NCBI GenBank assembly: GCA_030601885.1
Contig: JAUWAU010000016.1
Coordinates: 66,817-130,816 of the forward strand
DNA length: 64,000 bases
Direction: 5' to 3'
Source: Armatimonadota bacterium
GTDB taxonomy: Bacteria > Armatimonadota > Zipacnadia > JAUWAU01
Under the pieces are notes generated by a model. The model was not told the origin of the DNA. It saw nothing but the letters and a program-made list of their open reading frames with translations, and made no database searches. Shown here one piece after another: positions 4,327 to 37,492 of this stretch. A program made the position numbers and the translations under genes. Position 1 is the first letter of the stretch. Each line of letters begins with the position of its first letter.

Positions 4327-4379
4327 GTCGTGGCTTCCGCGGGCGGCGAACGCGTGGGATATTCTCTCGGACCGGGTAC

Positions 4380-5115: not shown

Positions 5116-5193
5116 CGCTGCACTCCTGAACGCTGTCTCATTGTATCACATTCTGCACCCACCGTGAATTCGGCGTCAATTCCTGAAATCCGG

Positions 5194-5225
5194 GGAATTC
5201 CGAGGACACCATACTCAATTCTTGC
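5194..5225 (+). repeat. J-repeat copy 4, forward orientation
   Basis: Reads GGAATTCCGAGGACACCATACTCAATTCTTGC, two or three mismatches from copy 3. It lies 79 nt upstream of the mntA start. Confidence 0.8.
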
Positions 5226-5428
5226 TCTGTGCCTTCTTGCGTAGGCCCTTGGACGATTCCGCCGACACAACACTCATTCTCTGCCCCCCAGCAACAACGC
5301 CCCGCCGCTCCGCCACGCTGAGCGTCCGGGCTGGCTGGCCGCGGCCGAGAAGGAGGTGTCAGGTGGTGGCAAGTCCAAGAAGCCCGGCACCGGGATTCGC
5401 ACAAGACGCATGAAGGGAGGAATGAGGC

Positions 5429-6469: not shown

Positions 6470-6583
6470 GGATGGGGCGCCAGGCACCCCTCTGCGGTCC
6501 GGACGCCGGATGTAAAGCTCGTCAACCTACTTGCTGCTCGGCTCCCACCGGCCCGTGGGTGAGACAAAGGAGAAAAGGCGAAG

Positions 6584-9436: not shown

Positions 9437-9477
9437 CGCTTGATTGCGTCAATCGGCACGTGAAAGGCCTCGGGCCA

Positions 9478-9573
9478 GGAATGGCCCGCACACGCGGGCG
9501 GCGCCGCCCGCGGGCGACCCGCGGCCTCCCACCCACGCGTAGCTCGGGCTTTCGAGCGCGAGATTCCCGATCA
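9478..9573. repeat. REP-like GC-rich palindromic intergenic element (family copy D, diverged)
   Basis: Reads GGAATGGCCCGCACACGCGGGCGGCGCC...CCCACGCGTAGCTCGGGCTTTCGAGCGCGAG. It shares the GAATGGCCCGC...ACGCG / CGCGTAG.TCGGGCTTTC blocks with 19688..19806 and 23083..23276. Confidence 0.6.
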
Positions 9574-9670
9574 AACAACAGCTCTTGCATACCCATCGCC
9601 GGGCCCTTCCCCGTGTGCAATGAGCTGATCACACCTGTCTCTCGCATCCACGGAGCATCAGGAGAAGGAA

Positions 9671-10522
9671 ATGAGCCAAACCGCCGAAAGAAGCGCCGCG
9701 GGCTGGACGGCAAGACAAATCCGTCAGCGTCTCGGTATCTCGACCGCCATCTACCAGAAAAAGCGCCTGGGCGCTGGCGAGATCGCAGCGATACGGGAGA
9801 GAGGCATTCGGCGTATTGAGCTGCTCATAAAGCAGCCCTCCTTCGATTTCGAGGATCGCCACCAGGTGTCAGAGGTCCTCGGCGAATGTGAGAAGCAGGG
9901 CGTGGCGATCGTCTCCGTGCACGGCAGCCTGGAATTGGATTACAAAGCGGAAGACGAGACAACTCGGCGACAGGTCATCGGCGAGACCCTGAACTCGATA
10001 CGATTCGCCGAGGAGGTGGGCGCATCCGTCTTCGTCGCTCATTTTGGCTGGAATGAGAACACCGAGAGGACCGTGACAGAGCTGCTGGGCAATACCGACG
10101 GGTGCCAGGTGAGGCTCACTACCGAGAACATGCTCGGAAAGATCGAGCGGTATCTGCCCGTCGTGGAGGAGATAGGGACCGAGCGCTTTGGGCTGACATT
10201 GGATGTTGGCCACGCCAGAGACGCTGAGGGCCGCAATCCCTTTGCCATGAAACACCGCGCGCGCCGCGCTCTGGCTCAGTGCAGCGCCGGGCTTCTGCAC
10301 CTGCACCTCCACGAGACGTTTGATTTGGAGCAAAAGCGCGACCATTGGCCACCCCTGCACGAACGTGGGATCATCGCATGGGGAGAAGTCTTCGCCGCGC
10401 TCAGAGACATTGACTACCGGGGAGAGCTCCTATTCGAGGACGGCCGCGGCGAAGACCCAGAGGAATGGAGTCAAATGACCGGGGCCTTCCCCGAGAGCTT
10501 CGTTACTCGTTATGCCGAGTGA
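9671..10522 (+). CDS. Sugar phosphate isomerase/epimerase (xylose isomerase-like TIM barrel)
   Basis: AGGAGAAGG RBS. Family blocks are present (IRRIELL, VSVHGS, VFVAHFG, LTTENM, LTLDVGHA, LHLHLHE). Confidence 0.75.
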   Translation: MSQTAERSAAGWTARQIRQRLGISTAIYQKKRLGAGEIAAIRERGIRRIELLIKQPSFDFEDRHQVSEVLGECEKQGVAIVSVHGSLELDYKAEDETTRRQVIGETLNSIRFAEEVGASVFVAHFGWNENTERTVTELLGNTDGCQVRLTTENMLGKIERYLPVVEEIGTERFGLTLDVGHARDAEGRNPFAMKHRARRALAQCSAGLLHLHLHETFDLEQKRDHWPPLHERGIIAWGEVFAALRDIDYRGELLFEDGRGEDPEEWSQMTGAFPESFVTRYAE

Positions 10523-10692
10523 ATCGCTGCAGCTCTTGGGCCTCGCCGGGCACCCCCTGCCGTGCCCGCGCCCCCGCCTCGCGGAAGCCCGGAGGCCGTT
10601 CTTGCCGGATCGCGCGGCAGCATCCCTCCGGCATTGCCAAGGCTCTCAGGTTCTGCCAAGTAGGCTTGAACGGCAGGTTGCATTCCCACGTG

Positions 10693-11232
10693 CTACTCGC
10701 CTGACCTCGCCTTCGCAGCAACGGCCACCGTCGCGAGAGCGTGGGTGCCGTGGCAGTCGGTGCACATGGCCTGCCGAAGAATCTCCCGCCCATTCGGGCG
10801 CACCTTCCCCTTCCACTCGGCCAGGAATGCCGCGACTCTCTCGGGATGCTCGTGGGGGCCATGGCATCTCTCGCAGAACGGCGCCACCTCAGCGCGGCCG
10901 AACATGACGTCCGGCTTGATCTCGTGCCCCTCGTCGTCTGCATGCTCGGAACAGATCCCGTGGCAGACGGCGCAGGTGATGCCGAGTTTGAGATGCGTCG
11001 TGACGAGGAGCTCCTCTTCGAAGTTCGCGTGACAGACCAGGCAGGGCGAGTTGTCTTCAGGCAGCCTGGCTCTCAGGCCACTGCGTACAGCGTGGGCCGT
11101 GACTTGCTGCTGTATCTCCTGCTTGAATTGCTCGACCCTCGCGCCCATCTCCTGCGTCACGGACGACCCGTGGGCGGCCAGCCAGATTCCACCCGTGGCC
11201 ATCACCATGATCGCCGCCAATCTCCACTTCAT
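10693..11232 (-). CDS. Membrane-anchored tetraheme cytochrome c
   Basis: Four CxxCH motifs are present (CLVCH, CAVCH, CERCH, CTDCH). There is an N-terminal hydrophobic anchor (LAAIMVMATGGIWLAA) and a GGAGG RBS 7 nt upstream. It is a paralogue of 23273..23737. Confidence 0.85.
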   Translation of the reverse strand: MKWRLAAIMVMATGGIWLAAHGSSVTQEMGARVEQFKQEIQQQVTAHAVRSGLRARLPEDNSPCLVCHANFEEELLVTTHLKLGITCAVCHGICSEHADDEGHEIKPDVMFGRAEVAPFCERCHGPHEHPERVAAFLAEWKGKVRPNGREILRQAMCTDCHGTHALATVAVAAKARSGE

Positions 11233-11654
11233 TACTTTGCCTCCTACATCTGGTTCCAGGTCATAATGCTTTTTGTGGCCTCGAACATGAGTATCATGTC
11301 GCCGGAATTGCCTTGACGGAATAGAGCATCGCCGTGGGCCTCACGCCTCGCTGCGTGACGTGATGAGCAACTGCAGGAAGGACCGCTCGTGCCATTCGGG
11401 CGCCGGCAGCCAAGATACCAACGACTGCGCGCCATCGTCAAGAGAATGAGTACCATGCCTCCGAGTGCCAACTAACGGGTGTCTTTCAACAAGCCCCTTG
11501 TCTTGTCCCCATCTTGTGGCGAAACAGGTCACGGGTCATCCTCAGCAAAGCCCCCACGCGTCTCGCGTGGGGCAAGAGGACTCCATTCAGCTTTGCGCGA
11601 AGCTCGTCGGCGATCCCGCTGGGCGGGACCAGTCTCGTCACATGGAGAGCCCCA

Positions 11655-13008
11655 ATGAAACGACATCGCGTCCTTTGGCTCTTGCCTCCATTGGCATTGG
11701 CAACTGCCCCATTCGTCGCCACGCTGGGGATGGCTCAGGAGGGCAAAGACTCAGCGGTTCCGGCTCCAGCGAGAATCCACGAGTTGGCGAAGATGCTCCC
11801 GCAGTCGCCTCGCGGACTGGGCAGCCCCATCGAGGATCGCGAATCATGGCAGGCCATCGCCAACGTGCTGGGGGTCGAGGAGATTCTCTCTCGGGCCGAA
11901 GAGCTGACGAGGGGTGCGATCCCCGAGACCGTCGGCGAGGCGCTTTCCGGGACGCTCCGGCAGATCGCCGTTGTGGAGGCTCTACGAGCTGGCAGTGTAT
12001 CGCTTCCCCAATTCGGCAACCAGCAGGGCCGCCGTGGACAAGCCGCCCTCTGTTCCCCCTCGGCGCGACTACTTCCCGGAGGCTGGCGTGCTCATCTGCC
12101 GACCCGCCCCCGACAATCGGGGCCATGCGCTGGGCGTGGCGCTCAAGGGCGGTCATAATGGCGAGCACCACAACCACAACGACGTCGGATCGTTCGTCGT
12201 GGCGTTAGCCGGGAGAACCCCGCTGGTGGACCCGGGAAGGGAGAACTACTCCGCGCTGACCTTCACCGCCCGGCGCTACGAGAGCAAGCTGCTGAGCTCA
12301 TTCGGGCACTCCGTGCCGCGCGTGGCCGGCCGGTTGCAGCGTGCGGGCCGTGCCGCCGCCGCCCGGGTTCTTGAGACGGAGTTCACCGACCGGGCCGACA
12401 CGCTGGTGCTCGACCTCCGCGCGGCCTACGACGTGCCGGGCCTGCAAGGGCTCAAGCGGACCTTCGTCTTCTCCCGCGAGCGTGGCGGCAGCCTGACGGT
12501 AATCGACAGTGTCGAGTTCGCCGCCCCGCGGACCTTCGAGACGGCGCTGGTCACCTTCTCCCGGTGGCGTCAATTGGCCGCCGATCGCCTTTTGATCGGC
12601 GAGGGCCCCGAAGCCGTGCAGGTGGACATCGCCGCCCAGGGTGAGGAATTCGTGGTCCAGGCGGAGAGCATCGAGGCGGACCTCTCCGGCGGCCGACTCC
12701 CGACGCGTCTGGGAATAGCCCTGGCAAAGCCCGCCACCAACGCGACAGTCACAGTGACCATCGCCCCCGCTTCGCCGGACCAGGCGACCGGGCCAATGGA
12801 GTCCAAACGCGCCATGAAGCAAGCAGAGCGACCCATCTCAGACGTCCCCGGCATCAGCATCCCTGAGGATACCTCTCCCGTTCAGACGGCGGAAGTAACG
12901 GCGGAAGACGGCAACACAATTCAGATCGCCATCAGTAATTCTGGGGACACCATACTTAATTATTGGAGTCGAGTGTGGTGTCCGTCGAACTTCGGATTGG
13001 CCCAATAA
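11655..13008 (+). pseudogene. Heparinase II/III-family protein, apparently frameshifted and shortened
   Basis: A signal peptide (MKRHRVLWLLPPLALATAPFVATLG) and N-terminal region lie in one frame up to about 11990. The C-terminal heparinase II/III domain, with GGHNGEHHNHNDVGSFVV, continues in the +1 frame (track ORF 11914..13008). The combined length is much shorter than usual for this family. The last codons run into the J-repeat hairpin. Confidence 0.5.
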
Positions 13009-25080: not shown

Positions 25081-25455
25081 TCGCTCTTCGCGGACTTCGC
25101 CGAGACCTTTCTCGACTACGCTGGGGTGCCCATCCCGAAGGCGATGCGAGGCCGAAGTTTCCGTCCGCTTCTACAGGGCAAGACGCCAGCGGATTGGCGC
25201 AAGTCGTCGTTCTATGCCTACTGGGGCCGCCGAACCAAGCACTACGGAGTCCGAACCGAGAGATATAAGCTGGTGATTTGCCATACCGGTGAGCGCGAAC
25301 TGTATGACCTGAAGACAGATCCACAAGAGCGCAGGAGCGAGATCGGTAACCCCGAGTATGCCGCCGTGGTGAAAGAGTTTGAGGCGGAGCTGAAGAAAGT
25401 GATGGAGGAGATAAGAATCTCACAGGATGTTCTGCCCGGAAACCGAGGAGGATAG
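25081..25455 (+). pseudogene. 3' remnant of a sulfatase gene
   Basis: Only the C-terminal sulfatase region is present (FAETFLDYAGVPIPKAMRGRSFRPLLQG ... HYGVRTERYKLV ... ELYDLKTDPQE). There is no N-terminal catalytic CxPxR part. Upstream codons of the track ORF look non-coding. Confidence 0.65.
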
Positions 25456-25465
25456 GACCAAGACC

Positions 25466-28400
25466 ATGACTCAAAAGGTGCTGATTCGGCGGGCAATCGC
25501 GTGGATGAGGACGCCGGCCACGATCTTGGCGTTGGCTGCGGCGTCTGCGACCATGTCGGCGGCGGACTGGCCGCAGTACCGGGCCGACGCCACCCGGAGT
25601 GGATACGCGCCGGAGACGCTGCCGAGCCAACTCTCCCTCAAGTGGGTTCGCCATGCGAGGCATGCGCCCGATCGGGCATGGGTGGGCCGGAGCCTGGCGC
25701 GGTCACGGATGAAGTTTGACTGGGCGCACAGCGTAGTTGTGGCCGATGGCATCGGTTATTTCGGCAGTTCGACAGATGACAAGCTGTACGCTATCGACGC
25801 CGCCACCGGTGAAGAGAAATGGAGTTTCTTCACCGGCGGGCCCATCCGCCTTGCCCCTGCCGTCTGGAAAGATCGTGTGTTCGTCGTCAGCGATGATGGG
25901 TTTCTGCACTGTCTGTCGGCACTGGATGGCACGGAGCTCTGGAAGGTGCGCGGCGGCCCCGATCCCGATCTGGTGATCGGCAACGGGCGCGTCGTGTCGC
26001 GTTGGGTGGCGCGTGGCGGTCCGGCCGTTCGGGACGGCGTGGTCTACTTCGGCGCGGGCATCTGGCCCACGGATGGGGTCGCCATCTACGCCGTTGATGC
26101 TGAGAGCGGCAAGGTTCTGTGGTGCAATGACAACGCCGGCGCCCTGGAGATCGACCAACCGCACATGGGCGCCTATTCCCGGGGAGGCGTCGCGGCGCAG
26201 GGATACCTGGCGGTTACGAGCGACAAGGTGTTCGTAATGACCGGTCGCTCCATCCCGGCGGCGTTTGACCGGAAGACCGGACGCTTTCTCTACTTCCACC
26301 TGAGTCGGTACGGAGGGAAGACGCCGTGGGGTGTGGGCGGTGGCGATGTGGTAGCGACCGATGATGTCTTCTTCACGGCGGGCTTCGCCTTCGATACCGC
26401 AACGGGCATGCGACATCATCAAGTTGGCAAACGTAACTGGTGGATCCCTTTCGTCAGGGACGGACACCAGTATCACGGCGAATTCCTGGTAGGTGTGCGG
26501 CAAGTTATCGCTGCTACGCCGGATGGGTTCGTCAGGTCGGAGGGCTCGACCGTATACGGCTCCGCCCTCTCCAGGAAGACCTATGCTGTCCGCCGGGAAT
26601 GGGAGACCTCTGTTCATACGCCCCGCCTGGCATCTGTCGGACCGGCGAACAAGGGATACATGGAGAGAATCGACGACGCTCCTCTGGTGGCGGATCAGTG
26701 GTCTGTCGAAACAGACGGTCCGATCCAGGAGCTCATTGTCGCCGGCGGAACCATCGCGCTGGGCTCGGCCAACCGGGTCTTTCTCGTGGACGCAGTATCG
26801 AGGAGAGTCACGTGGTCAACCGAACTCGACAGCGCCGTCTACACATTGGCCGCATCGGACGGCTGCCTGTACGCCAGCACCGGCAAAGGGACCATCTACT
26901 GCTTCGGTGCGCAGGATGTGAACGCGGCTCCGAGAGAGATCGAGCTGAGCTCGAGGGCCTCGCCGTATCCGGACAACAGCCTCGCGCGTAGGGCGGCCCA
27001 GGAGATCATTCGCCAGACGGGCATCACCAGCGGTTACTGTCTGGATCTGGGATGTGGCAATGGTGCGCTGGCCTATGAGCTGGCGAAGCGGACCGATCTT
27101 CACATCATTGGCATAGATGCCAATCCGGCTAACGTCAGGGAAGCGCGGCGCAAACTGGATGCCGCCGGGCTCTACGGGGTGAGCGTGGCCGTCCTGCAAC
27201 GGGCTCTCTCGACCACGTATCTTCCCGACTACTTTGCGAACCTCATCGTCTCCTCATCGGCACTTCTCACGGGCACCGGCGGCTTGCCCGAGGGAGAGAT
27301 CGCCCGCCTCCAGCGCCCTTACGGCGGCACAGTTTGCCTGGGGACGCCGGGGGCCATGACTGTCAACGTGCGCGGCGAACTCGAGGGCGCGGGCAGTTGG
27401 ACTCATCCGCTTGGCGATCCCGGCAACACCATGTGCTCGGGCGATGAGCTCGCCAGAGGCCCGCTGGGGGTCTTGTGGTACAGGGACGAGACCCTCGAGA
27501 CCATTGACCGCCACGGCAAGAACCCGGCGCCGCTGTTCTACAAAGGCGTGCTGCTGCGCGAAGGCATCAACGCCATTGACGGAATCGACGCCTACAACGG
27601 CCGCGTCATGTGGCGCGTTTCTTTGCCAGAGCTGTTGGGCGCCTACCTGGGCGGCTCGGGCGTCGGGGCGACCCAGGTCGCAAACACGTACTGCGTCGCC
27701 GATGACGTCGTCTACGCCCGACAGGGGAGCCACTGCCTACTACTGCACGTCTACACGGGAAAACGTCTGGACAGATTCGAAGCGCCCAAGCATCCGGACG
27801 GACGCAAACACGACTGGACGTATGTCGCTTGTGAGGACGGCATTCTGTACGGCGCGCTCGCCAACGACACGCACATCGTCAAGTCGCAGCACGGAAGCGG
27901 AAACGAGCGCACGCAGGTCCCCATGGACAGGCACTTCACGGAATCCTCCATGGTCTTTGCCATAGACGCGGATACGGGCGAGGTGAAGTGGACGTGGGTT
28001 CCTGAACAGTCGATCCGGAACAATTCCTTCGCCGTCGGGAATGGCTGCATCTTCTTCATCGATCGCCCCGTGGCCGAGATTGACCGAATCCTCCGTGAAG
28101 TCGCCGAGGCGAAGCGCCGCGGAGGGGAGCCCCTGCCGGCCCATCCGCTCGGCAGGTTGTTGGCTCTGGACGGGAACACGGGGGAGTTGCTGTGGGATAG
28201 GAAAGACAATGTTCACGGTACCACGCTCGTTCTGAGCGCCAAACATGACGCGCTCCTCATGTGCTACAACCACGTCGGTCGCGCTCTTGCCTCGGATGGC
28301 TTCAATCAAGGAACCACCTGCTTTCGGGCGTCGGATGGAACGATTCTGTGGGAAACGACGCAGAAGCTGGGCGGGCAGCGTCCCGTGGTCGTCGATCGGA

Positions 28401-29053
28401 CGATGTACAGCCCCCCGGGCGCGTGGGATCTGCTGACGGGAGAGCCGAAGACCGTAATGCGAAATGGTCAAGAGGTGCTCTGGCAAATCAAGGACCGGCG
28501 GATGGGTTGCGGCCCGTTGGCCGGCTCGCAACACCTGCTAATGGGGCGCGCGGGGGCCATGGGATACTACGACCTGGCGTATGATCCCGGGAGATACGAG
28601 TACTTCGGCGGCGCGCGGGCGGGATGTTGGATCAACATGATCGCGGCCGGCGGCATCGTTCTGGCGCCTGACGACAGCCGGGCCTGCCGCTGCGCCTATC
28701 AGAACCAGGCGTCCGTTGCCCTCAAAGAGTATGGGGAACGTCCGCCGAGGGTCACGGTGGCGAGCGAACCGGCGAACTACGCCTATGACATCGCCAGGAG
28801 GTCGTATAGCTTCGTTGGCAAGCTCATCATCGAGATGAGTCATCCCAAGGACGATGTCGAGATACGCTACACACTGGACGATAGCTATCCAACGATGGGA
28901 TCAGCTCTCTACACGGGGCCCATTACATTGACGGAGACAATGCCCGTGCGGGCCTCGGCGTTCAGGAACGGCAGGAAAGTGGCCGTTCGCGACGGCATCA
29001 TCTTCACCAAAGTCCGGAAGCTGGACACGACCACCGGGAAGAAGGGGCAATGA
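25466..29053 (+). CDS. Secreted PQQ-like beta-propeller protein with an internal class I SAM-methyltransferase domain and a C-terminal chitobiase/hexosaminidase-type (Fn3-associated) domain
   Basis: Signal peptide present, followed by propeller blades (ADWPQYRAD, KLYAIDAATGEEKWSF, LHCLSALDGTELWK, VLWCND). The SAM motif I is GYCLDLGCGNGALAYELAKRTDLHIIGID. A second propeller follows. The C-terminal block is IRYTLDDSYPTMGSALYTGPITL. The start could instead be the ATG at 25427. Confidence 0.75.
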   Translation: MTQKVLIRRAIAWMRTPATILALAAASATMSAADWPQYRADATRSGYAPETLPSQLSLKWVRHARHAPDRAWVGRSLARSRMKFDWAHSVVVADGIGYFGSSTDDKLYAIDAATGEEKWSFFTGGPIRLAPAVWKDRVFVVSDDGFLHCLSALDGTELWKVRGGPDPDLVIGNGRVVSRWVARGGPAVRDGVVYFGAGIWPTDGVAIYAVDAESGKVLWCNDNAGALEIDQPHMGAYSRGGVAAQGYLAVTSDKVFVMTGRSIPAAFDRKTGRFLYFHLSRYGGKTPWGVGGGDVVATDDVFFTAGFAFDTATGMRHHQVGKRNWWIPFVRDGHQYHGEFLVGVRQVIAATPDGFVRSEGSTVYGSALSRKTYAVRREWETSVHTPRLASVGPANKGYMERIDDAPLVADQWSVETDGPIQELIVAGGTIALGSANRVFLVDAVSRRVTWSTELDSAVYTLAASDGCLYASTGKGTIYCFGAQDVNAAPREIELSSRASPYPDNSLARRAAQEIIRQTGITSGYCLDLGCGNGALAYELAKRTDLHIIGIDANPANVREARRKLDAAGLYGVSVAVLQRALSTTYLPDYFANLIVSSSALLTGTGGLPEGEIARLQRPYGGTVCLGTPGAMTVNVRGELEGAGSWTHPLGDPGNTMCSGDELARGPLGVLWYRDETLETIDRHGKNPAPLFYKGVLLREGINAIDGIDAYNGRVMWRVSLPELLGAYLGGSGVGATQVANTYCVADDVVYARQGSHCLLLHVYTGKRLDRFEAPKHPDGRKHDWTYVACEDGILYGALANDTHIVKSQHGSGNERTQVPMDRHFTESSMVFAIDADTGEVKWTWVPEQSIRNNSFAVGNGCIFFIDRPVAEIDRILREVAEAKRRGGEPLPAHPLGRLLALDGNTGELLWDRKDNVHGTTLVLSAKHDALLMCYNHVGRALASDGFNQGTTCFRASDGTILWETTQKLGGQRPVVVDRTMYSPPGAWDLLTGEPKTVMRNGQEVLWQIKDRRMGCGPLAGSQHLLMGRAGAMGYYDLAYDPGRYEYFGGARAGCWINMIAAGGIVLAPDDSRACRCAYQNQASVALKEYGERPPRVTVASEPANYAYDIARRSYSFVGKLIIEMSHPKDDVEIRYTLDDSYPTMGSALYTGPITLTETMPVRASAFRNGRKVAVRDGIIFTKVRKLDTTTGKKGQ

Positions 29054-29283: not shown

Positions 29284-30615
29284 TTATCCGGCGGCCATTT
29301 TCGGCTGCAGGCGGCGCGCGGCTGCCCACAGTGCAATGGCAAGCCAAAGCCGCATCTGTGGGGCGTAACGGCGCCAGGAGCGGACGAAGCTCGATTCGAA
29401 CACCCACGTCCACGCCAACGCGGCAGGCAGCGCCAGAAGTGAAGGCAATCCGCCAAGTGCCACCCAAACCTGCCCCCCGCCCGGTGCTGCTACTGCGCTC
29501 CACCATTCCCGCAGCGCCTCCGGGTATTGCATAGCCAGGCACACTACCAGGCCAATGAGGGCCAACTGAGCGACCGCCTCCCCCGCCACCCAGAGCACCG
29601 CCCACCACAACCTCCCCCAGGCGCTCCAGCCCTGCGTGGCTCGATTCATGGTCTCGGGCGCCACCAGCGAGTCGATGCGGTCGAGCAGATCCTCCCACGC
29701 ATCCGCATCGTCGAGCCGCACCAGACCCAACGCATCGGTCAGCAGCCACCAGCCATCGGTCCTCGTCCCGACAAGCAGGCACCAGGCTGCAGTGAACTGC
29801 AGGAAAAGCGCCGCGGCCAGGGCGGCGGGCCAGGCGGTGCCCACATAGATGGCATACGAAACGACCGCAGCCACAAGCTGAAGGTACACGCCACCAGCGT
29901 CCACGATACACCGCCGCGCGCGCGGGAGCCTCCAGGCTTCAGTGACATCCGCACTCCAGGATGCCGGCAGGAGCCCGGTCACATCGCCATGAGTACCGGA
30001 GAATCTTCGGCACGCTGCGAGATGACCTAACTCGTGCAAGAAGACGAGCAACGGCGCCAGGAGGCTCAAGACCAGGACGTCGAGCCACGAAAGCTGGTGC
30101 AGCGCGCGGGCTACTTGGGGAAGCCCATCGAACACGACCATCCGGACTAGCATGGCCAGTACGGCGACCAGTACAGCAGCCGCCACCGGCCGTGCGAATA
30201 GGACGCCCAGCAACGGTGTAGCCACCCCGAGCTGGCCCGCCTTGACAGTGACCCGCCAGGCACCCGCCGTTTTCTCGACAAAACGCGGAGGCACTGGCTC
30301 CATGTCCGGTTCGGCGTCGTCGTCCTGGGCGCGGCGGCCGGCCAGGAGGCCTCGTGGCCCCAGCCTATTCTCCAGAGCCCACTCAACCTCCCACCGCGTG
30401 ACGTGGCGGCGCCAGAGGCGGGAGACGGCGCGCGCAATTCGCTCCTCAGACCGCATCCCATCGATGCAGGAGAGGAGTTGATAGAGGGACTCGGAGATGC
30501 GGAAGAACCTGGCGTCCGGTAGCCGGACCAGGTAGGCCGGCTGGGGCAGATCCACGTCGAAGGGGCCGATCCAAACGCCCTCGGCGAGGCGTGGCTTGGC
30601 GGCGCTCGCGGGCAT
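29284..30615 (-). CDS. PqqD/RRE-like domain fused to an M50-like multi-pass membrane zinc metalloprotease
   Basis: The N-terminal block is FFRISESLYQLLSCIDGMRSEERIARAV (PqqD-like). HELGH sits within a TM segment. TDGWWLLTDALG resembles the second M50-type motif (xDGxxxLxD). At least six hydrophobic segments are present. The ATG lies 3 nt after the stop of 30619..32718. Confidence 0.65.
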   Translation of the reverse strand: MPASAAKPRLAEGVWIGPFDVDLPQPAYLVRLPDARFFRISESLYQLLSCIDGMRSEERIARAVSRLWRRHVTRWEVEWALENRLGPRGLLAGRRAQDDDAEPDMEPVPPRFVEKTAGAWRVTVKAGQLGVATPLLGVLFARPVAAAVLVAVLAMLVRMVVFDGLPQVARALHQLSWLDVLVLSLLAPLLVFLHELGHLAACRRFSGTHGDVTGLLPASWSADVTEAWRLPRARRCIVDAGGVYLQLVAAVVSYAIYVGTAWPAALAAALFLQFTAAWCLLVGTRTDGWWLLTDALGLVRLDDADAWEDLLDRIDSLVAPETMNRATQGWSAWGRLWWAVLWVAGEAVAQLALIGLVVCLAMQYPEALREWWSAVAAPGGGQVWVALGGLPSLLALPAALAWTWVFESSFVRSWRRYAPQMRLWLAIALWAAARRLQPKMAAG

Positions 30616-30618
30616 GGC

Positions 30619-32718
30619 TCAACTCTCTTGGAGGGCCGTGAGCAGCGCCCGGAGGCAGAAGGCGGTGGTCACCGTTGCGCTCTTGAAGGTCAACACGTGT
30701 GCAGACGTCGTCGCCTGCCGCTCCAACCGGAGGCGCGATAGGTCCACTTTCACGAAGGGACTGGCGGGCCATGCGCCGCTGCTGCGCTGGCGGCCGAGGA
30801 GATATGACAGCCCCCGCCTCCCGGCCGTGTCGAGCTCCGGTTGGCCCTCTTGCAGATCACACGCCAGTACACCGAAGGCCGTCTCCAGAGGCGTGCTTTC
30901 CGGTTCTCCCCATCCGCCATCCTGGTGCTGCGCCTGCAGCACGTACTGCAGCCCGCGCGCCAGCGGCTCGCAGTCGGGCTCGACATCAGCCAGAAGCCGA
31001 CAGCACAGCCACGTGGGATAGGTTCGACCCCAATACCAGTGGCCAGACCAACTGCCGTCCGAGTGCTGGACGCTCGCCAGGTAGCTTACACCGGCTCGCA
31101 GAACCTCGCCGAAGGCCTGCTTATCGTACAAGCAAACCCCGAACAGCGCATTGGCAACGACGTCCAGATCCGGCTCTTCGCCCCATGCCTCGTACATTCG
31201 TGCCTTGGCCCGCAGGGCGTCCTCATCGTCGGGGTCGGCCAGCCACGTGTCCACGGCACCATTTGAGCGCACATTGTGCTCGGCCAGCAGGGCCACGACA
31301 TCGCCGCACAGCTCGGCCATTCGCTCCGGCGCCGCACTGGCCAAGGCAGACAGGACGGCGCCCAGCGTGTCGGCATCCGCCGGCAGTCCGCTCACGCCCG
31401 GGATGTACGTCCATCCTCGTTGCGGGCCTTCGAGGCGGCTGCGTGCCAGGTAATCAACCTCGGCCTGCAACACTTCGTCAGGCACCATCAGACCGACGCG
31501 TCGGCAGTGCGCGAGGGCCTCCAGGATAAGGGCTCTGGCGAACACGTCGCCCGTGCGAAGGTGTCCACCCTTCGCCAGGGGCTCCGGTTGGGGGAAAAAC
31601 ACGGGGTGCCGTGCCTCGACAAAGCCCCGCTGCTGCTCCTGGACCAGCAGCCTCAGAGCCGACTCAGTCGCCTCGCGCGCCCGCTCTGTCGTCACTTCAT
31701 CCGATGCCGGTCTGGGGAGGGGCTCTGCCTCAATCCGGGCTCGCTCTTTTGTTGTAGCGCGGAGCAGTTCAAGGTCCTGCTGCAGGTTGGCTGAGCGAGT
31801 TCGTGCGCGCTGGACGTACCCCAGCCAGCCTGGACAGCCCTGCTCAGCGGCCAATTCGTGCGCGTGGTCAAATGCTGCGATGGACTCGCCCAGCGCCTCC
31901 TCAGCCAGCCCCGAGAAGTACATGAATTTGCCCACCAGCTCGGCGTCTGGCTTCTCGTCGCCCATGATCTGGTTGGCTAGGCCGCTTTCGATGAGGGTCC
32001 GGGTCAGGATGTAGGAGTAGTTCCCCCGCTCATAGTCGAACTTCCAATCGCAAAGATCGTCGTGCAATTGCAGGCCCATGGCGTGGTGGTCTTGGGAGGC
32101 GGTCAGCGGCTCAATCTTGTCGGGCTCGTGACCGAGCAGCCCCAGCGCCGTGGGGACCAGCTTGGCACATGCCTGCTTCCCCGTAGCCGAGCGCCAAAGC
32201 TCCTCTCCCGTGTAGGGGATCACTTGGCCGTCGTGGCGGCTGCGCTCCGCGACCATGACACCGGCCTGCTCCAGCCAGAAGGCGTCAAAGCGGAGCCAGA
32301 AGTCCGAGCTGGCGTCGAACAACTCCTGAAACGCGCGCGAGGCTTGCTGCAGACGATAGTGGCAACTCAGATAGCTGGCCAGGATGAACGGCCGCGCGTG
32401 TCCAAGCTGTGCGTCCACCAACTTGTCAAGCAAGATGGCGTGCTCAGCGACGAGCTGCGCACCAACCGCCAGTGTGCGCGCGTCCTCTGCCGTAACCCGC
32501 GGGAAGCCAGACAGAAACAGATAGACGTAATCATGGAACGAGCAATAGGCGGCGATGCTGTCAACCCACGTCCCGTCCTTCTCAATCACGCCGTCCATCG
32601 CTTCCCACTCGATGTAGGGCGATTGCTTCAGTGACTCATAGAAGCTGCCCACCACCTGCGTCGCGAGCGCCCAGACTTGCTCCACCTCGTGTGCCATGTG
32701 AGAATCGGGCTCCTGCAT
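30619..32718 (-). CDS. Fusion protein: N-terminal polyprenyl-synthase-like (class I isoprenoid fold) domain plus C-terminal QW-repeat prenyltransferase/terpene-cyclase-like alpha/alpha barrel
   Basis: N-terminal half: GLQLHDDLCDWKFD sits at about residue 215-228, where a second Asp-rich motif is expected. ATGKQACAKL is KT-like. A degenerate first motif, AILLDKLVD, sits at about residue 95-102. C-terminal half: four QW-like repeats are present (YLARSRLEGPQRGW, YLASVQHSDGSW, YVLQAQHQDGGW, YLLGRQRSSGAW), plus LPADADTLG. The ATG at 32718 is preceded by GAGGAG; the track start at 32724 is a TTG. Confidence 0.6.
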   Translation of the reverse strand: MQEPDSHMAHEVEQVWALATQVVGSFYESLKQSPYIEWEAMDGVIEKDGTWVDSIAAYCSFHDYVYLFLSGFPRVTAEDARTLAVGAQLVAEHAILLDKLVDAQLGHARPFILASYLSCHYRLQQASRAFQELFDASSDFWLRFDAFWLEQAGVMVAERSRHDGQVIPYTGEELWRSATGKQACAKLVPTALGLLGHEPDKIEPLTASQDHHAMGLQLHDDLCDWKFDYERGNYSYILTRTLIESGLANQIMGDEKPDAELVGKFMYFSGLAEEALGESIAAFDHAHELAAEQGCPGWLGYVQRARTRSANLQQDLELLRATTKERARIEAEPLPRPASDEVTTERAREATESALRLLVQEQQRGFVEARHPVFFPQPEPLAKGGHLRTGDVFARALILEALAHCRRVGLMVPDEVLQAEVDYLARSRLEGPQRGWTYIPGVSGLPADADTLGAVLSALASAAPERMAELCGDVVALLAEHNVRSNGAVDTWLADPDDEDALRAKARMYEAWGEEPDLDVVANALFGVCLYDKQAFGEVLRAGVSYLASVQHSDGSWSGHWYWGRTYPTWLCCRLLADVEPDCEPLARGLQYVLQAQHQDGGWGEPESTPLETAFGVLACDLQEGQPELDTAGRRGLSYLLGRQRSSGAWPASPFVKVDLSRLRLERQATTSAHVLTFKSATVTTAFCLRALLTALQES

Positions 32719-33045
32719 GCACAAACTCCTCTCTCGCCAGAGGGCGGAATGCGGTTTCGTTCAGTCTAGGCGCACTGACAGCGCTGCTGGCTCAGGGGCG
32801 GCGCCCGCTTCCGGCCCCAGCTACTTTGTCCGCACCGCGCCGGCCCGCCATGCGCGAACGCTGTGCTCAAGGCGGCACCGACATCGTAGATGCCTGCCCA
32901 TTGTTGGCACAGGCCATTGGCCGGCCGCCTATAGGGTCTACGTTCGGCAATGAACGGGATCCCGCGTGCGCGCGTTGGGAGGAGCGAGGGCTGTGGGGTT
33001 TTGTATCAGGAAGGCTCCATCCGGCCCCCGACGATGTGCAACTCA

Positions 33046-33176
33046 GAGCCTATCCCAAAACCCCTCGACTTGTCATGCTGAGCCTGGCGAAGCATCTCGC
33101 AATAGCCTCCGGGACGAGATTCTTCGCGTTGCTCAGAATGACATTTCTTCGAGCGGCTGGTTTTAGGATAGGCTCT
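33046..33176. repeat. Nested palindromic intergenic element
   Basis: Outer arms are GAGCCTATCCCAAAACC and GGTTTTAGGATAGGCTC. Inner arms are TGTCATGCTGAGC and GCTCAGAATGACA. Each pair has one mismatch. It lies in the spacer between the precursor peptide gene and the fusion gene. Confidence 0.8.
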
Positions 33177-33512
33177 AAATCACGGGACAGCTCCAGCACT
33201 GCCTTCCCAGCCCTCGAGAGCGATTCCCTAACCATCCCGTGTCCGCTTGCCGCTGCTGCCAAGCCCGAAACGGCCGGCTCTCGCGGCCCCGGGTAGTCGC
33301 AATGACACCCTTTCGCGGCTGCCGCCGGCCGGGGCTTGGTCCACGTTGTGCACCAGCGAAACGTCGCCCTGCCCGTGAGCACGTGTGCCCGTGCGTGCAT
33401 GAGCCCGTTCCCCAGAGCGTCACACCGCCTCGCGTCCACGGATAGCACCCCACGGAGCCCTGACCCTCCGCCTGCCCTCGCTGTGGTGCAGAGGGTCCAA
33501 TTCCCACAGCGG

Positions 33513-33704
33513 CTACTCCGGCTCTGGCTTCGGCATTTCTTTCTTGCCCCAGTCGCCGCACGCTTTGAAATTGTCGCACACGCACCCCCAAGCCTCCCCA
33601 CGAACGTCCAGCTCCTCCATGGCCAGCCGTTCCTCAAGCTCGTCTATGGACACCGCAGCGAACAACTCGGTGTTCAATGACTCGATTTGCTTACCAGGGC
33701 TCAT
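33513..33704 (-). CDS. Candidate RiPP precursor peptide (63 aa)
   Basis: The sequence is MSPGKQIESLNTELFAAVSIDELEERLAMEELDVRGEAWGCVCDNFKACGDWGKKEMPKPEPE. The ATG at 33704 follows a GGAGGA RBS (33711..33716) by 6 nt. It lies 97 nt downstream of the rSAM stop. It is hidden in the C-terminus of the 172-aa track ORF, whose upstream part overlaps the rSAM gene out of frame. Confidence 0.6.
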   Translation of the reverse strand: MSPGKQIESLNTELFAAVSIDELEERLAMEELDVRGEAWGCVCDNFKACGDWGKKEMPKPEPE

Positions 33705-33801
33705 GCTGTGTCCTCCTTGTGGAACCGCCACCCCGCCTCCGTGGGCTGCTGGATGCGACCTTTTCCAGGGCCCACACGGAGCCGAACGGTTCTGCTGTTC
33801 C

Positions 33802-35208
33802 CTATGCTGCCGCCGTAGATGAAAGCTGTTGCGCCGACTTGTCACTGTTGCGATCCAGCCACTCGACGTACGCCAGCGGCGCCACTCGTTGGAAGAGCTC
33901 GGGAAAGTCAGCGCAGTGCGGCTCGTACAGGTCGCCGGTTTCCCAAAAGGCGCGCTGCGCGCAGCCGCCTCCGCAAAGCAGGGCGTAGGGACATTTCCGA
34001 CACTGTGGTATGTTCGCCACCGTCCGCGCACGCCATCGCTCGACCGCCTCGTCGTCCAGCTCTAGATCCGGCACATACCTGCCCAGTTTGCCCTCCGGCG
34101 TCCGCACCGCTTCCCAGCATGCATACACATCGCCGGATGGGTCGAACAGATACATGGCTCTATTGGCGCCGCAGAAGGACGGCTGCAGGCGCGGAAGGCC
34201 CGTCTGCCGCAGCAGGCCAAACACGGTTCTGCGTAAGCCGAAGTCTGTACGCAGACACGAGAGTTCGGGATGGCTGGCCTGCAATCGCTGAAGGCCCTGC
34301 ATCATCTCGACCGGAGAAAGAGTTTGCCGAGCAGTCGATGGGGCATACACCACGTGGCAGTACGGGTGGAAGTTTTCGTGTGCCGCCCATCCCTGCTCCC
34401 GATAGAAGCGGGCCAGCTCCGGTATCAGGCTCAGATTGCTGCGGTCCACGTTCGTCCGCAGGCTCACGTCCACGCCGGCTTGAAGCGCGAGGGCGATGTT
34501 GTCGCTGATAGCAGCGAAGGTGCCGCGGCCGTCAGGCCCAATGCGGCGCTGGTCGTGGATCGGCTGGGGCCCGTCCAGGGTGATTTGGATCTCCTCGATC
34601 TTGCCCGCCCCCAGCAAGTGGCGGTAGTGTGCCAACCCTACGCCATTAGTAGTGGCGTGCAAGGCATAGCCGGCCTCAGTGCTCCTCTGGACCATGTACT
34701 CCACTATCTCCAGATTCCGGGGCATCAGCGGCTCGCCGCCATACAGCGTGATTGGCGCCCGCTGCTGGTCCTCGGGCTGCAGCTTCTCGATGGCCCGGAA
34801 CGCAGCGTCCACCGTGGCCTCATCCATGTGCGTCTCGCCACGCTCGGCGTCACGCCCGTCACGCCCGGCCTGAATGCAGTAGGGGCAGCGCAACTGACAG
34901 TCGTAGGTCGGAATCAGGTGAAATGTGGTGTACCGCCGATCCCGCCGATGAATCGCATCGGCAATCCGGCACATCAAGTCCCGTTCCTCTTCGGGGGTCT
35001 TGTCCGTGAGATACCCCCGCTGACGAAGCTGCGCCGCCGTTTGGGGCAGAATGTCTTCCGGCGCATGGGCGCAGCCATCCGCTGCCTCTCGCAGGAACGC
35101 TGCCACCTCACTAGCGACAACATCCACCGCACCCGAATAGCCGTGCACCAGAAGAACGCGACCCGATCCGGGCAAATCCGCCATCATCGTGTAGTCGCTT
35201 GTCCGCAT
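33802..35208 (-). CDS. Radical SAM / SPASM-domain peptide-modifying enzyme with N-terminal RRE-like extension
   Basis: CQLRCPYC (CX3CX2C) sits about 104 aa from the favoured start, MRTSDYTMM. The full 7-Cys SPASM pattern is present: C-x12-G-x4-C (CGANRAMYLFDPSGDVYAC), CX2CX5CX3C (CRKCPYALLCGGGC), then PHC. The track ORF starts 108 nt further upstream. Confidence 0.85.
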   Translation of the reverse strand: MRTSDYTMMADLPGSGRVLLVHGYSGAVDVVASEVAAFLREAADGCAHAPEDILPQTAAQLRQRGYLTDKTPEEERDLMCRIADAIHRRDRRYTTFHLIPTYDCQLRCPYCIQAGRDGRDAERGETHMDEATVDAAFRAIEKLQPEDQQRAPITLYGGEPLMPRNLEIVEYMVQRSTEAGYALHATTNGVGLAHYRHLLGAGKIEEIQITLDGPQPIHDQRRIGPDGRGTFAAISDNIALALQAGVDVSLRTNVDRSNLSLIPELARFYREQGWAAHENFHPYCHVVYAPSTARQTLSPVEMMQGLQRLQASHPELSCLRTDFGLRRTVFGLLRQTGLPRLQPSFCGANRAMYLFDPSGDVYACWEAVRTPEGKLGRYVPDLELDDEAVERWRARTVANIPQCRKCPYALLCGGGCAQRAFWETGDLYEPHCADFPELFQRVAPLAYVEWLDRNSDKSAQQLSSTAAA

Positions 35209-35318
35209 GTGCACCACCGGGCGTTGACATCTCCCAACGGCCAAACGCCAAGCCGGGGCAGCTTTGTCTCTGCTGGCTCGTCCCACCGCGCCCAGCCCGT
35301 TGAGGTAACCAGGCACGT

Positions 35319-35870
35319 CTATGCGTCGATCCGGCCCATTAGAGCCTCGCTGAATTGAAACTGCTGTGTCTCGACTGCACGGTTGTCGAGCGCGGACAGG
35401 CTGGACCTCACACCCCTGGTCTGGCTCATGCTGCGGGACATGCTGGGGTCCTTGACAACCATTATGGCCGTGTACATGGGGGCTCCTTCCGTGCCCACCA
35501 CCAGCTTGTAGATGGCTGCGCGCTGGATGCCCGCCTGTTTGCCGTACTGCGCAAACGCCTGCTGCAAGTCCGCCTCAAGCTGGGCCTCCTGCCCCGCTTT
35601 TGGCTTCCAGTACTGAGCCATGATAACGGGGCTGGCACGAAGCTGTGCAATGGTAGGCGCGTTCGGCATCACCCGTTCGACGCCCGCAGCCCGTGTGGAC
35701 GGTGTCCGCGTCCGACCCAGCGGGCCCCGCCGCGTTCGCAGTTGTGCGGAGGCGCGCTTGGGAAGAATCAGCGCACCCAGACCGCCCAGCAGCGATCCGG
35801 CTAAGGCGCCCAGTCGTATGAGCGCCCGGCGTCGGGCACTGCCTGCCTTCGTCTTACGGTCCTCTGGCAT
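35319..35870 (-). CDS. Hypothetical exported small alpha+beta protein (ABM/Dabb-like?)
   Basis: The N-terminus is TAT-like (SARRRALIRLGALAGSLLGG). The C-terminal ~100 aa (VIMAQYWKPKAGQEAQLEADLQQAFAQYGKQAGIQRAAIYKLVVG...AIMVVKDP) resembles a ferredoxin-like monooxygenase/stress-barrel fold. It lies directly upstream of the rSAM gene on the same strand. Confidence 0.45.
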   Translation of the reverse strand: MPEDRKTKAGSARRRALIRLGALAGSLLGGLGALILPKRASAQLRTRRGPLGRTRTPSTRAAGVERVMPNAPTIAQLRASPVIMAQYWKPKAGQEAQLEADLQQAFAQYGKQAGIQRAAIYKLVVGTEGAPMYTAIMVVKDPSMSRSMSQTRGVRSSLSALDNRAVETQQFQFSEALMGRIDA

Positions 35871-36397
35871 CTCTCAATCCTCCTTGTGCTGGACTCGCTA
35901 GCACGACTGCATTTCAGACTAATTCGGCTTTCTTCTCGGCCGAGTCGTCACCTCCTCCGTTTAGGGCCATATGCACACCCTTGCCGGACTCGCCGACCGC
36001 CGCACAGCGGCGCTGTATGCCATGGGCATGGCTGTTAGGGTGAATTGTGAGCAGTCTAACAAAGGGGGTATTGTATGTCAACCGCCGCCGGTTAGCGCGG
36101 TGGGAACGGCAGTTGACCGGCGACGACGGGCAGCGATGGCGTTAGTCTCCCACCGGAGCTTTGTCCGACTTTTCCCGCCCACGCCAGGATCCAGTTCCGG
36201 CACGCCCATCTCAGTGGAATGCGTGCGTTTCGTCGCGTCACGGTCGTCCTCGCCTCTTCGAGGGGCAGGGCGCGGAGTACAACCTGATGCTGACCTTCGG
36301 CCCGGCAGTCTCGCTGGTGCACTGAGGCAGCTTGCTCGGGCAAAGGACAATCAGCGGCGCTCGCGGAACGACGCCCGGGGGAGGTGCGGCGCACACC

Positions 36398-37492
36398 ATG
36401 GACAAGCAATCGAAGCCACTCGCCTATGTGGAGGCCGGAGTGGACCAGGCGCGCGAGGCACGTGCCCTCGCCGGGCTCGTCGGCTGGCTGGCGAAGGCGA
36501 ACGAGCTCCGCGACGGGATCGGAACGTCGGTATTGCCCTCCGGCCACTACGCCACGGTGGTGGACATCGGGCACAACACCGGCCTGGCGCTCTGCACCGA
36601 CGGCGTCGGCACGAAGGTGCTCGTGGCGCAGCTCATGGGCAAGTACGACACCGTGGGCATCGACTGCATCGCGATGAACGTCAACGACCTGATCTGTGTG
36701 GGGGCCGAGCCCATCGCCATGGTGGACTACCTCGCCGTCGAGGAGGCCGACGAGGAGCTGCTCGAGGGAATCGGCAAGGGTCTGTACGAGGGGGCGAAGC
36801 AGGCCAACATCACCATCCCGGGCGGCGAGGTCGCGCAGCTCCGGGAGATCGTCAAGGGCGCGGTCCAAGGCAAGGGCTTCGACCTGGCCGGCGCCGCCTT
36901 CGGCCTCGTGCCGCTCGATGGCATGATAACGGGCGAAGACATCAAGCCGGGCGATGCGATAGTTGGGCTGGCCAGCAGCGGCATTCACAGCAATGGCTTG
37001 ACGCTGGCGCGGAAGGCGCTCCTGGAGCAACTGGGGCTTCGCGTTGACAGCCACGTGGCGGAGCTTGGGCGCACCGTGGGCGAGGAGCTGCTCGAGCCGA
37101 CGAGGATCTACGTCCGGCCGGCGCTGGAGATGCTGCGCTCAGACGCTGACGTCAAGGGCCTCGCGAACATCACCAGCGACGGCCTCACGAACCTGGCTCG
37201 ACTCTCGCGCGAGGTGGATTACGTCATTGAGGAGCATCCGGAGCCCCCGCCGATATTCCCGCTGATCCAACGCGCCGCCGGCGTGACGGACGAGGAGATG
37301 TACACGGTCTTCAACATGGGCGTCGGCTTCTGCGTGGTGTGCGCCGAAGGGGATGCGGACGCGGTCATCGAGATCGCTCAAGCGCACGAGATAGACGCGT
37401 GGAAGCTCGGCAGTGTGGAACAGGGAAGCGGACGGGTGATGCTTCGGACGCGGGGACTGGTCGGTGAGGGCGGGGAGTTCCGGCGGGTGTAG
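36398..37492 (+). CDS. purM: PurM-type AIR synthase (phosphoribosylformylglycinamidine cyclo-ligase) family protein
   Basis: Family blocks are YVEAGVDQ, LCTDGVGTKVLVAQ, GIDCIAMNVNDLICVGAEPIAMVDYLA, IPGGEVAQL, GLASSGIHSNGLTLARK and FNMGVGFCVV. The start is the ATG at 36398 (MDKQSKPLAY). Confidence 0.7.
   Translation: MDKQSKPLAYVEAGVDQAREARALAGLVGWLAKANELRDGIGTSVLPSGHYATVVDIGHNTGLALCTDGVGTKVLVAQLMGKYDTVGIDCIAMNVNDLICVGAEPIAMVDYLAVEEADEELLEGIGKGLYEGAKQANITIPGGEVAQLREIVKGAVQGKGFDLAGAAFGLVPLDGMITGEDIKPGDAIVGLASSGIHSNGLTLARKALLEQLGLRVDSHVAELGRTVGEELLEPTRIYVRPALEMLRSDADVKGLANITSDGLTNLARLSREVDYVIEEHPEPPPIFPLIQRAAGVTDEEMYTVFNMGVGFCVVCAEGDADAVIEIAQAHEIDAWKLGSVEQGSGRVMLRTRGLVGEGGEFRRV

Follow-up and report, generated by a model that had tools for sequence, protein, structure and literature searches.

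The first report of ribosomal peptides that carry a cyclized terpene dates from 2024, and so far no more than a couple of the enzymes that make them have been characterized. These prenyltransferase–terpene cyclase (PC) maturases, which act on peptides that are ribosomally synthesized and modified post-translationally (RiPPs), were introduced by Hubrich et al. (Chem 2024;10:3224; summary in PMC13290415). According to that summary, ChrPC consists of a C domain and a P domain resembling a trans-isoprenyl-diphosphate synthase (trans-IDS); it prenylates an internal Trp with C10–C20 donors and then cyclizes the chain. NctPC, as described there, fuses a P domain of the ABBA fold to an MstE-like cyclase, geranylgeranylates Trp and subsequently cyclizes the chain. 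The name steromaze is used for one PC product in PMC13647313. Here we describe a locus in a 64-kb stretch of an Armatimonadota genome (assembly GCA_030601885.1, contig JAUWAU010000016.1; this whole stretch is the window, and positions are counted from its first letter), in which a predicted PC maturase is encoded near a 63-residue precursor peptide, a radical S-adenosylmethionine (rSAM)/SPASM enzyme and a membrane HExxH protease. The locus is a real, coherent RiPP biosynthetic gene cluster, as a preceding sequence-only reading had proposed: its leader belongs to a family of precursors, and the synteny with maturase genes is conserved. By analogy with the characterized systems, the product is probably a peptide crosslinked by the rSAM enzyme that bears a cyclized terpene on Trp.

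Comparison with described systems

ChrPC, as portrayed in PMC13290415, is the closest counterpart. Both enzymes appear to fuse a trans-IDS-like P domain to an MstE-like single-domain class II cyclase, both have motifs rich in Asp and a Gln ahead of the one of SARM type, and the gene of each adjoins that of a precursor with a leader and an internal Trp. In contrast to the ChrPC system of that account, the window locus adds an rSAM/SPASM enzyme, a Cys-containing core and, as a fixed partner, an HExxH membrane protease, and its enzyme reads DADT instead of DADD. With NctPC and the steromaze pathway the window enzyme would share Trp prenylation followed by cyclization through a fused class II cyclase domain; the P domain of NctPC, however, is an ABBA barrel rather than a trans-IDS fold, and the precursor families differ.

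Two further groups of enzymes are related to one half each. ComQ/ComX and PalQ likewise re-use the polyprenyl-synthase fold on a Trp of a ribosomal peptide, but they come without a fused cyclase, an rSAM enzyme or an M50-like protease, act on other precursors and serve in quorum sensing. The single alpha/alpha toroid (template modeling (TM) scores of 0.72–0.81) and the position of the acid motif (PADAD-S/T) are shared with MstE and the myxobacterial single-domain class II cyclases 8PAK/8PAJ. MstE differs in being a stand-alone enzyme that acts on a small molecule, geranylgeranyl dihydroxybenzoate, and not on a peptide-bound prenyl group.

The sequence-only reading had considered the combination of enzymes undescribed. 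For the fusion this does not stand, since PC fusions including the trans-IDS-type ChrPC were published in 2024 (PMC13290415); for the pairing of rSAM and PC, no description was found in that source. The locus is read as a variant of the PC chemistry described in 2024 and not a categorically new class. The leader family, the protease partnership and the rSAM–PC combination are absent from Pfam and NCBIfam and were not found described in the literature, with the primary PC paper outside the scope of the search. Tentatively, we place the locus in a hybrid subclass that would combine rSAM-made Cys crosslinks with a cyclized terpene on Trp, within a superfamily defined by its leader (SLN…EELExRLE) that mixes rSAM and PC modules and has, in most PC loci, an M50-like protease with a possible RiPP recognition element (RRE). 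Such an rSAM–PC subfamily offers a testable route to peptide–terpenoid hybrids with extra crosslinks.

The precursor peptide and its leader family

The sequence-only reading had singled out as a candidate precursor a 63-codon open reading frame (ORF) that starts 97 nt past the rSAM stop codon. It is annotated as a gene in public records, with its ATG at 33704–33702, 6 nt behind a GGAGGA, and a stop codon ending at 33513. The encoded peptide, MSPGKQIESLNTELFAAVSIDELEERLAMEELDVRGEAWGCVCDNFKACGDWGKKEMPKPEPE, divides into a leader of approximately residues 1–30 and a core that includes W39, C41, C43, C49 and W52.

The leader reads IESLN…SIDELEERLAM. Small ORFs upstream of PC genes carry the corresponding pattern φ-(D/S)-(V/I)-E-E-L-E-x-R-L-E-(L/M), which in rSAM-containing loci is preceded by (I/V)xSLN. 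A leader hidden Markov model, run against 842,513 residues of six-frame translation from related loci and the window, recovered about 45 segments; each of them lies in a small ORF encoded on the strand of the PC gene, and together they cover at least six phyla. These precursor ORFs often stand in tandem, in arrays of two to five. Expressed as a regular expression, the leader matches the six-frame translation of the 64-kb window once, at the 63-residue ORF. The motif is also present in ORFs that adjoin rSAM homologues in other genomes and in metagenomes, which is where the sequence-only reading had suggested looking for conservation. Together with the core pattern described below, this recurrence beside PC homologues bears out the assignment of the ORF as precursor. 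In combination with PC and HExxH genes, the leader motif provides a handle for genome mining. The NCBIfam precursor families gave no match to the peptides, apart from a weak CefA-like signal for those of Ktedonosporobacter.

Residues 1–53 of the precursor are identical in four close relatives, in which variation is confined to the C-terminal tail. Relative to one close relative, L035 (GCA_054773435.1), whose locus is ~98% identical, the peptide gene differs at only four positions, the genomes being too close for an informative dN/dS. Across the family the core follows a pattern: an aromatic residue, usually Trp, lies ~10–13 residues past RL(E/A) and directly before the first Cys, as in EAWGCVC of the window, DAWGSCC (L013), DDWGCPSVC (L014) and GVWCDC (L010). 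A Trp soon after the leader is found in nearly all precursors, and those of Nostoc (L009, L011 and L022; …AGWEIFGPNEPI) and Terracidiphilus (L001; …SGWHVSVSVSVSRD) are free of Cys. Because Trp is near-universal and several precursors lack Cys, Trp rather than Cys appears to be the target of the PC maturase. The best reading of the PC half is that it prenylates Trp as ComQ does, a precedent that had been named before any database search.

Synteny of the rSAM, precursor, PC and protease genes

Does this arrangement recur beyond the window? A scan of species-representative genomes with a 4-sequence alignment of the PC family gave 28 loci, against which the window proteins were then compared by tblastn. 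The loci belong to Acidobacteriota, Chloroflexota (including Ktedonosporobacter), Bacteroidota (Flavobacterium, Emticicia), Cyanobacteria (Nostoc, Calothrix), Gemmatimonadota and others. Full-length rSAM orthologues with 34–39% identity occur in 8 of the 28. The order rSAM–precursor(s)–PC–(0–1 gene)–HExxH is that of the window in L010, L012, L013, L014, L015, L016, L017 and L047; it is conserved in Chloroflexota and Acidobacteriota, and Bacteroidota and Nostoc show the order precursor(s)–PC–HExxH. HExxH homologues are present in 16 loci, nearly always just downstream of PC. Leader-motif precursors stand directly beside PC in ~17 loci from at least six phyla, some of these without any rSAM gene. 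The two gene pairs that the sequence-only reading had joined into one system, and whose joint occurrence elsewhere it had proposed to examine, are therefore found together in the loci just named.

Along the same lines, metagenomes were scanned with the rSAM enzyme, which yielded 30 loci. One (L036) is a same-species copy of the whole locus; L046, L047 and L054 combine rSAM, precursor and PC, with or without HExxH, and L040 and L044 hold rSAM, precursor and HExxH without PC. In L042, L045 and L053 (about 7500–9000) the rSAM gene is accompanied by peptides with a variant leader (EIVSLNEELFSLEAG…EEL.RRLELAVAA…CDTFTC…), and no PC or HExxH gene lies within 6 kb. This leader family is common to a modular set of RiPP clusters, of which the window represents the combination of rSAM, PC and HExxH.

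Such modularity raises the question of whether the window holds two independent units, a ranthi- or sactipeptide-like RiPP made from the rSAM enzyme and the peptide, and next to it a fusion protein that is an ordinary small-molecule terpene synthase. The ~660–794 nt between peptide and PC genes would suit this division, as would the rSAM homologues that share the leader family in loci without PC and the similarity to squalene cyclases that is all Pfam and NCBIfam detect; yet PC lies directly beside leader-motif precursors in the ~17 loci mentioned, rSAM-free loci included, and is followed immediately by a RiPP-type HExxH protease in 16. Moreover, the FARM-like motif of the P domain is reduced to DxxxD in 39 of 41 family members, which is atypical for chain elongation, and the published PC enzymes act on peptides, as summarized in PMC13290415. 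We consider two separate units unlikely and read the locus as one cluster.

The PC maturase

The fusion had been described from the sequence as a polyprenyl-synthase-like domain joined to a QW-repeat barrel. This description holds: the N domain (approximately residues 1–330) is predicted to be a prenyltransferase of the trans-IDS fold, and the C domain (approximately residues 345–699) forms a QW-type alpha/alpha toroid. An AlphaFold2 (AF2) model based on an alignment of 41 family members reached a predicted local distance difference test (pLDDT) score of 92.4 and a predicted TM score (pTM) of 0.89. Compared with the Protein Data Bank (PDB) by Foldseek, the N domain of the model resembles polyprenyl synthases (TM 0.72–0.75), and the C domain resembles 8PAK/8PAJ (TM 0.78–0.81) and MstE (TM 0.72–0.76). 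Profile searches of the PDB with the 41-member alignment agree with this: for the N-terminal half they find synthases of polyprenyl and geranylgeranyl diphosphate (2e-7), and for the C-terminal half squalene-hopene cyclase (3e-35) as well as 8PAK/8PAJ (361/365 aa) and MstE. In the window protein itself Pfam recognizes the squalene-hopene-cyclase C-terminal repeat only, and NCBIfam likewise reports squalene-cyclase similarity only; a fragment of 173 aa that spans the DxDD motif gave no useful match in the PDB.

The window enzyme has each of the motifs that are conserved in the family, D98xxxD102, Q217xxD220D221xxD224W225xxD228 and D448xD450. D98xxxD102 and Q217xxD220D221xxD224 occur in at least 38 of the 41 members, with the Gln directly upstream of the SARM-type motif. 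A conserved Gln in this position is a proposed Trp-recognition element in ComQ, PalQ, ChrPC and Ord1, as summarized in PMC13290415. In the C domain the acid motif lies within LPPDADDLAQV in the family and LPADADTLGAV in the window, whose PADADTLG aligns to PADADSTA of 8PAK; both 8PAK and 8PAJ carry DADS at this site. Of the 41 family members, 33 have DADD and five DADT at this site; in the window the residues are D448-A-D450-T451. Conservation is also good in the QW motifs and elsewhere in the toroid. Because of the cyclase matches in profiles and structures, the aligned acid motif and an E value of about 0.4 for the beta subunit of Rab geranylgeranyltransferase (GGTase) against the PC profile, we assign the C domain as a predicted single-domain class II terpene cyclase and not as a prenyltransferase beta subunit.

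Loss of the third Asp (DADT) could also be taken to mean that the enzyme prenylates Trp and stops there, as ComQ does, with the cyclase-like domain serving as a non-catalytic scaffold or peptide-binding module. Thr451 in the window protein and in four other members would fit such a role. Conservation of D448 and D450, each in 39 of 41 members and the latter at the usual position of the general acid, speaks against a scaffold, as do the DADS of the solved cyclases 8PAK/8PAJ (whose activity is putative) and the preservation of the toroid with its QW motifs, and we regard a scaffold as the less likely reading. Least probable of all is a view developed from the beta-subunit precedent of the sequence-only reading, in which the toroid alkylates Cys, like prenyltransferase beta subunits or LanC, to give an S-prenylated product without terpene cyclization: the fold is common to these beta subunits, PF00432 matches 6 of 41 members and the window core has three Cys, but the best matches are 8PAK, 8PAJ and MstE (squalene-hopene cyclase at 3e-35 and 8PAK/MstE at TM 0.75–0.8, against the E of about 0.4 for Rab GGTase beta), the conserved DxD(D/T), here PADAD(T), aligns to single-domain cyclases, many precursors, such as those of Nostoc and Terracidiphilus, are Cys-free, and a D/C/H zinc site is not evident in the C domain because H371 is its lone invariant or near-invariant Cys or His column.

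The family is large. An exhaustive HMMER search gave 1926 matches at E≤0.001 and, after clustering at 50%, 326 representatives at E≤1e-30; among the best 150 matches most are ~670–700 aa long and have both domains. An earlier impression that the protein was nearly unique, based on two full-length matches in a word-indexed search, was an artefact of the index. Some 326 representatives from at least six phyla, with a recognizable precursor leader and a dedicated membrane protease, thus make up the trans-IDS-type PC family, for which the 2025 and 2026 releases of Pfam and NCBIfam hold no model, either of the fusion, of the precursors or of the protease clade.

The radical SAM/SPASM enzyme

The radical SAM domain of the upstream enzyme is matched by PF04055 (5.6e-14) and its SPASM domain by TIGR04085, with 56 bits where the cutoff is 27. 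The CX3CX2C motif corresponds to C104/C108/C111, and the seven SPASM Cys are residues 346, 364, 403, 406, 412, 416 and 432. All ten are invariant in the eight orthologues (34–39% identity) that adjoin PC genes in eight genomes, and these orthologues begin at a Met matching the start at 35208. The enzyme has an N-terminal extension of ~95 aa in common with other RiPP rSAM maturases, and alignment to these suggests that it may contain an RRE.

That this enzyme is a peptide maturase and not an anaerobic sulfatase-maturating enzyme (anSME), as had been proposed, agrees with the searches. Its best named relatives in NCBIfam are RiPP maturases (TIGR04463, CefB, PapB and the geopeptide maturase), although it stays under all equivalog cutoffs, scoring 125 of 525 bits for TIGR04463, 114 of 600 for CefB, 103 of 340 for PapB and 69 of 425 for the SCIFF maturase. 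The anSME model TIGR03942, whose cutoff is 349 bits, gives it 68. The nearest solved structure is the thioether-forming CteB (5wgg, 3e-24), with anSME behind (1e-13). In its sequence the enzyme is accordingly nearer to the thioether-forming RiPP maturases than to anSME. It shares with CteB, PapB, CefB and TIGR04463 the CX3CX2C and seven-Cys SPASM motifs, the N-terminal extension and, in the precursors of its subfamily, Cys-rich cores; unlike them it belongs to a clade of its own, which has a distinct leader family.

The membrane protease

The gene that begins 3 nt past the PC stop codon encodes a protein with at least six hydrophobic, transmembrane-like segments, HELGH at residue 194 after the second of these and TDGWW at 286. 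H194, E195, H198, D287 and G288 are invariant in its family. PF02163 matches 13 of 14 family members, though not the window protein itself, and the family profile finds the site-2 protease MJ0392 (3b4r) at 9e-4, in keeping with the earlier description as an M50-like membrane protease. Among NCBIfam models, daptide_HExxH (NF041824) matches at 3.9e-16 with 59 bits, below its cutoff of 300, and YydH/LiaK (NF058609) at 0.003 with 17 bits, below its cutoff of 225. The protein is presumed to be the leader peptidase of the cluster.

As in the daptide and YydH/LiaK systems, a polytopic membrane HExxH protease is part of the RiPP cluster, and the pairing of an rSAM enzyme with an M50-type protease recalls yydFGHIJ. 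What sets the window protease apart is an additional domain of ~100 aa at its N-terminus, possibly an RRE. The PqqD signal of this domain is weak: PF05402 matches 2 of 13 members (best 7e-4) with the window protein unmatched, and the domain profile finds PqqD (5sxy) in the PDB at an E value of 0.04. An RRE is plausible here from these similarities; the AF2 model of the protein, calculated from a 2-sequence alignment, had a pLDDT of 37.6 and was unusable.

Proposed pathway

How might these components work together? The gene content, folds, motifs, conserved synteny and precursor family described above can be arranged into a pathway in which we infer what kind of crosslink is made, which residue is modified, how long the chain is, how the steps follow one another and what the protease does; the PC reaction itself is borrowed from the literature on ChrPC and NctPC. 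The 63-aa precursor would first be recognized through its leader, IESLN…(S/D)(I/V)(D/E)ELExRL(E/A)(L/M). The rSAM/SPASM enzyme would then crosslink the three core Cys intramolecularly, most likely by thioethers of the sacti- or ranthipeptide type. In a third step the P domain of the PC maturase would take a C10–C20 prenyl group from a prenyl diphosphate of the cell and attach it to the indole of a Trp, most likely W39, the residue at the family's conserved aromatic site directly ahead of the first Cys, and the MstE-like C domain would protonate the distal double bond, with D450 of DxD(D/T) as the acid, and cyclize the chain to a polycyclic terpenoid. Finally, the membrane HExxH protease may bind the leader by its N-terminal domain and cut it off at the membrane.

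Several observations pull in the other direction. Some precursors have no Trp, with Tyr at the corresponding position in L012 and L016 and Phe in one L014 paralogue. A Gln before the SARM motif is also found in ordinary trans-IDSs and is therefore consistent with Trp recognition rather than diagnostic of it. The window enzyme has DADT and not DADD, a Thr451 that is common to five of 41 members, and its likeness to ChrPC is one of architecture and motifs. The rSAM homologues also occur without PC. Because of the 794-nt spacer (~660 nt without a palindromic insertion, see below), the rSAM–precursor half and the PC–protease half may be separate transcripts. The 64-kb window has no gene for a polyprenyl synthase, and the prenyl donor must therefore come from general metabolism. 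In favor of terpene chemistry, on the other hand, a stand-alone polyprenyl synthase gene adjoins PC in L001, L007, L024, L026 and L034.

Layout and boundaries of the cluster

The genes of the cluster are all on the minus strand (Table 1), and the coordinates, motifs and spacings of the sequence-only reading are correct except for the start codon behind one spacer. This spacer, between precursor and PC, had been given as 788 nt, which applies to a TTG two codons upstream and a protein of 701 aa; from the ATG of the 699-aa protein it is 794 nt.

Table 1 Features of the cluster in the window, with strand and basis of assignment
Feature	Position	Strand	Basis or remark
183-aa ORF, twin-arginine-like signal	35319..35870	-	adjoins rSAM gene upstream, same orientation
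Radical SAM/SPASM peptide maturase, 468 aa	33802..35208	-	PF04055, TIGR04085
Shine-Dalgarno GGAGGA of precursor gene	33711..33716	-	read from sequence
Precursor peptide, 63 codons/63 aa	33513..33704	-	ribosome-binding site, leader motif, conservation
MITE-like palindromic insertion, 133 nt	33046..33178	.	hairpin fold, absence from L035
PC maturase (two-domain fusion), 699 aa	30619..32718	-	AF2, Foldseek, profiles, motifs
Membrane HExxH metalloprotease, 443 aa	29284..30615	-	M50/site-2-protease-like; NCBIfam, PF02163 family matches

The locus is flanked by purM (36332–37492, plus strand) and by a 1208-aa gene on the plus strand (25427–29053) that is convergent with the cluster. L035 carries the same five genes with a spacer ~130 nt shorter. 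Since the gene content downstream of the protease differs between the window and L035, the boundary of the cluster was placed downstream of the protease gene. The 1208-aa protein combines repeats of a pyrroloquinoline quinone (PQQ)-like beta-propeller with a SAM-methyltransferase domain and CHB_HEX_C/Fn3-associated domains. It was rejected as a member of the cluster, being convergent and replaced by other genes in L035; a link to other loci amounted to the generic methyltransferase domain only.

Within the spacer lies the nested palindrome that the sequence-only reading had counted among the features of the locus. It consists of near-perfect, nested inverted repeats with outer arms at 33045–33062 and 33159–33176 and folds into a hairpin of -82.6 kcal/mol (z = -8.4). 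The element is single-copy in the window and absent from 34 related loci, and Rfam gave no match anywhere in the window. L035 lacks exactly this element, at a T(T)A site, its flanking spacer being ~96% identical. Because of this precise absence it looks like a mobile element resembling miniature inverted-repeat transposable elements (MITE-like) and not a part of the pathway; a regulatory element of the cluster was considered and rejected, as L035 lacks the insertion.

The 183-aa protein with the twin-arginine-like signal fared similarly. Its N-terminus, RRRALIRLGA…ASA, is signal-like, and a sigma-70-like promoter match lies upstream of its gene (36081–36053). Pfam and NCBIfam gave no match. 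Only close relatives of the window genome have the protein, its gene adjoining the rSAM gene on the upstream side, and tblastn found no homologue in the 28 distant PC loci. On these grounds it was rejected as a core component, although it had initially been taken as part of the system, and its place in the pathway is doubtful.

Related clusters and enzymes

Matches to the cyclase domain only were collected in L023–L034, where the ORFs are 287–846 aa long and several are cut by contig ends. Some of these cyclases, of ~380–430 aa, appear to be stand-alone, and others are fused to different partners. In L024, L026 and L034 a polyprenyl synthase gene and methyltransferase genes adjoin the cyclase. 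All of these represent further architectures within one cyclase clade, that of the PC enzymes.

In L042, L045 and L053, and also in L049, L050, L055, L056, L059 and L060, precursors with the variant leader follow rSAM homologues (35–37% identity) and have cores of the CDTFTCTTFTGSCGAFGCTTFKI type. Judged by eye from its sequence, the next ORF in L042 and L053 resembles a permease of the FtsX/MacB type. These variant-leader rSAM loci are a sister RiPP family, which was not found described.

A Terracidiphilus metagenome-assembled genome holds a cluster (L001, 5004–12097) with a PC homologue, a stand-alone polyprenyl synthase and a B12-binding radical SAM enzyme of 649 aa. Its Cys-free precursor of 72 aa ends in GWHVSVSVSVSRD, and a gene for an M48 (Ste24/CaaX-protease-like) peptidase is divergently transcribed. 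This cluster may represent a variant in which methylation joins prenylation and another protease is used.

The chromosome of Ktedonosporobacter rubrisoli (L017, 9471–21977) encodes two PC enzymes, one rSAM enzyme, one HExxH protease and six precursors. Five of the latter stand in tandem and have cores of a "Cys-every-fifth" kind with a C-terminal Trp (…CIGNACGANGCAGNYNGW), weakly matching the CefA precursor model.

Duplicated systems are found in the cultured Flavobacterium foetidum and F. resistens (L019/L021, ~3200–13000), with two HExxH proteases and four tandem precursors of 42–45 aa (FSIEELESRLEMKAWVE…), which makes these strains convenient for experiments. A second type of precursor (FQVEELEKRYEF(A/Q)W…) lies near the second copy of the fusion gene, which in L019 appears split into two ORFs of ~295 aa.

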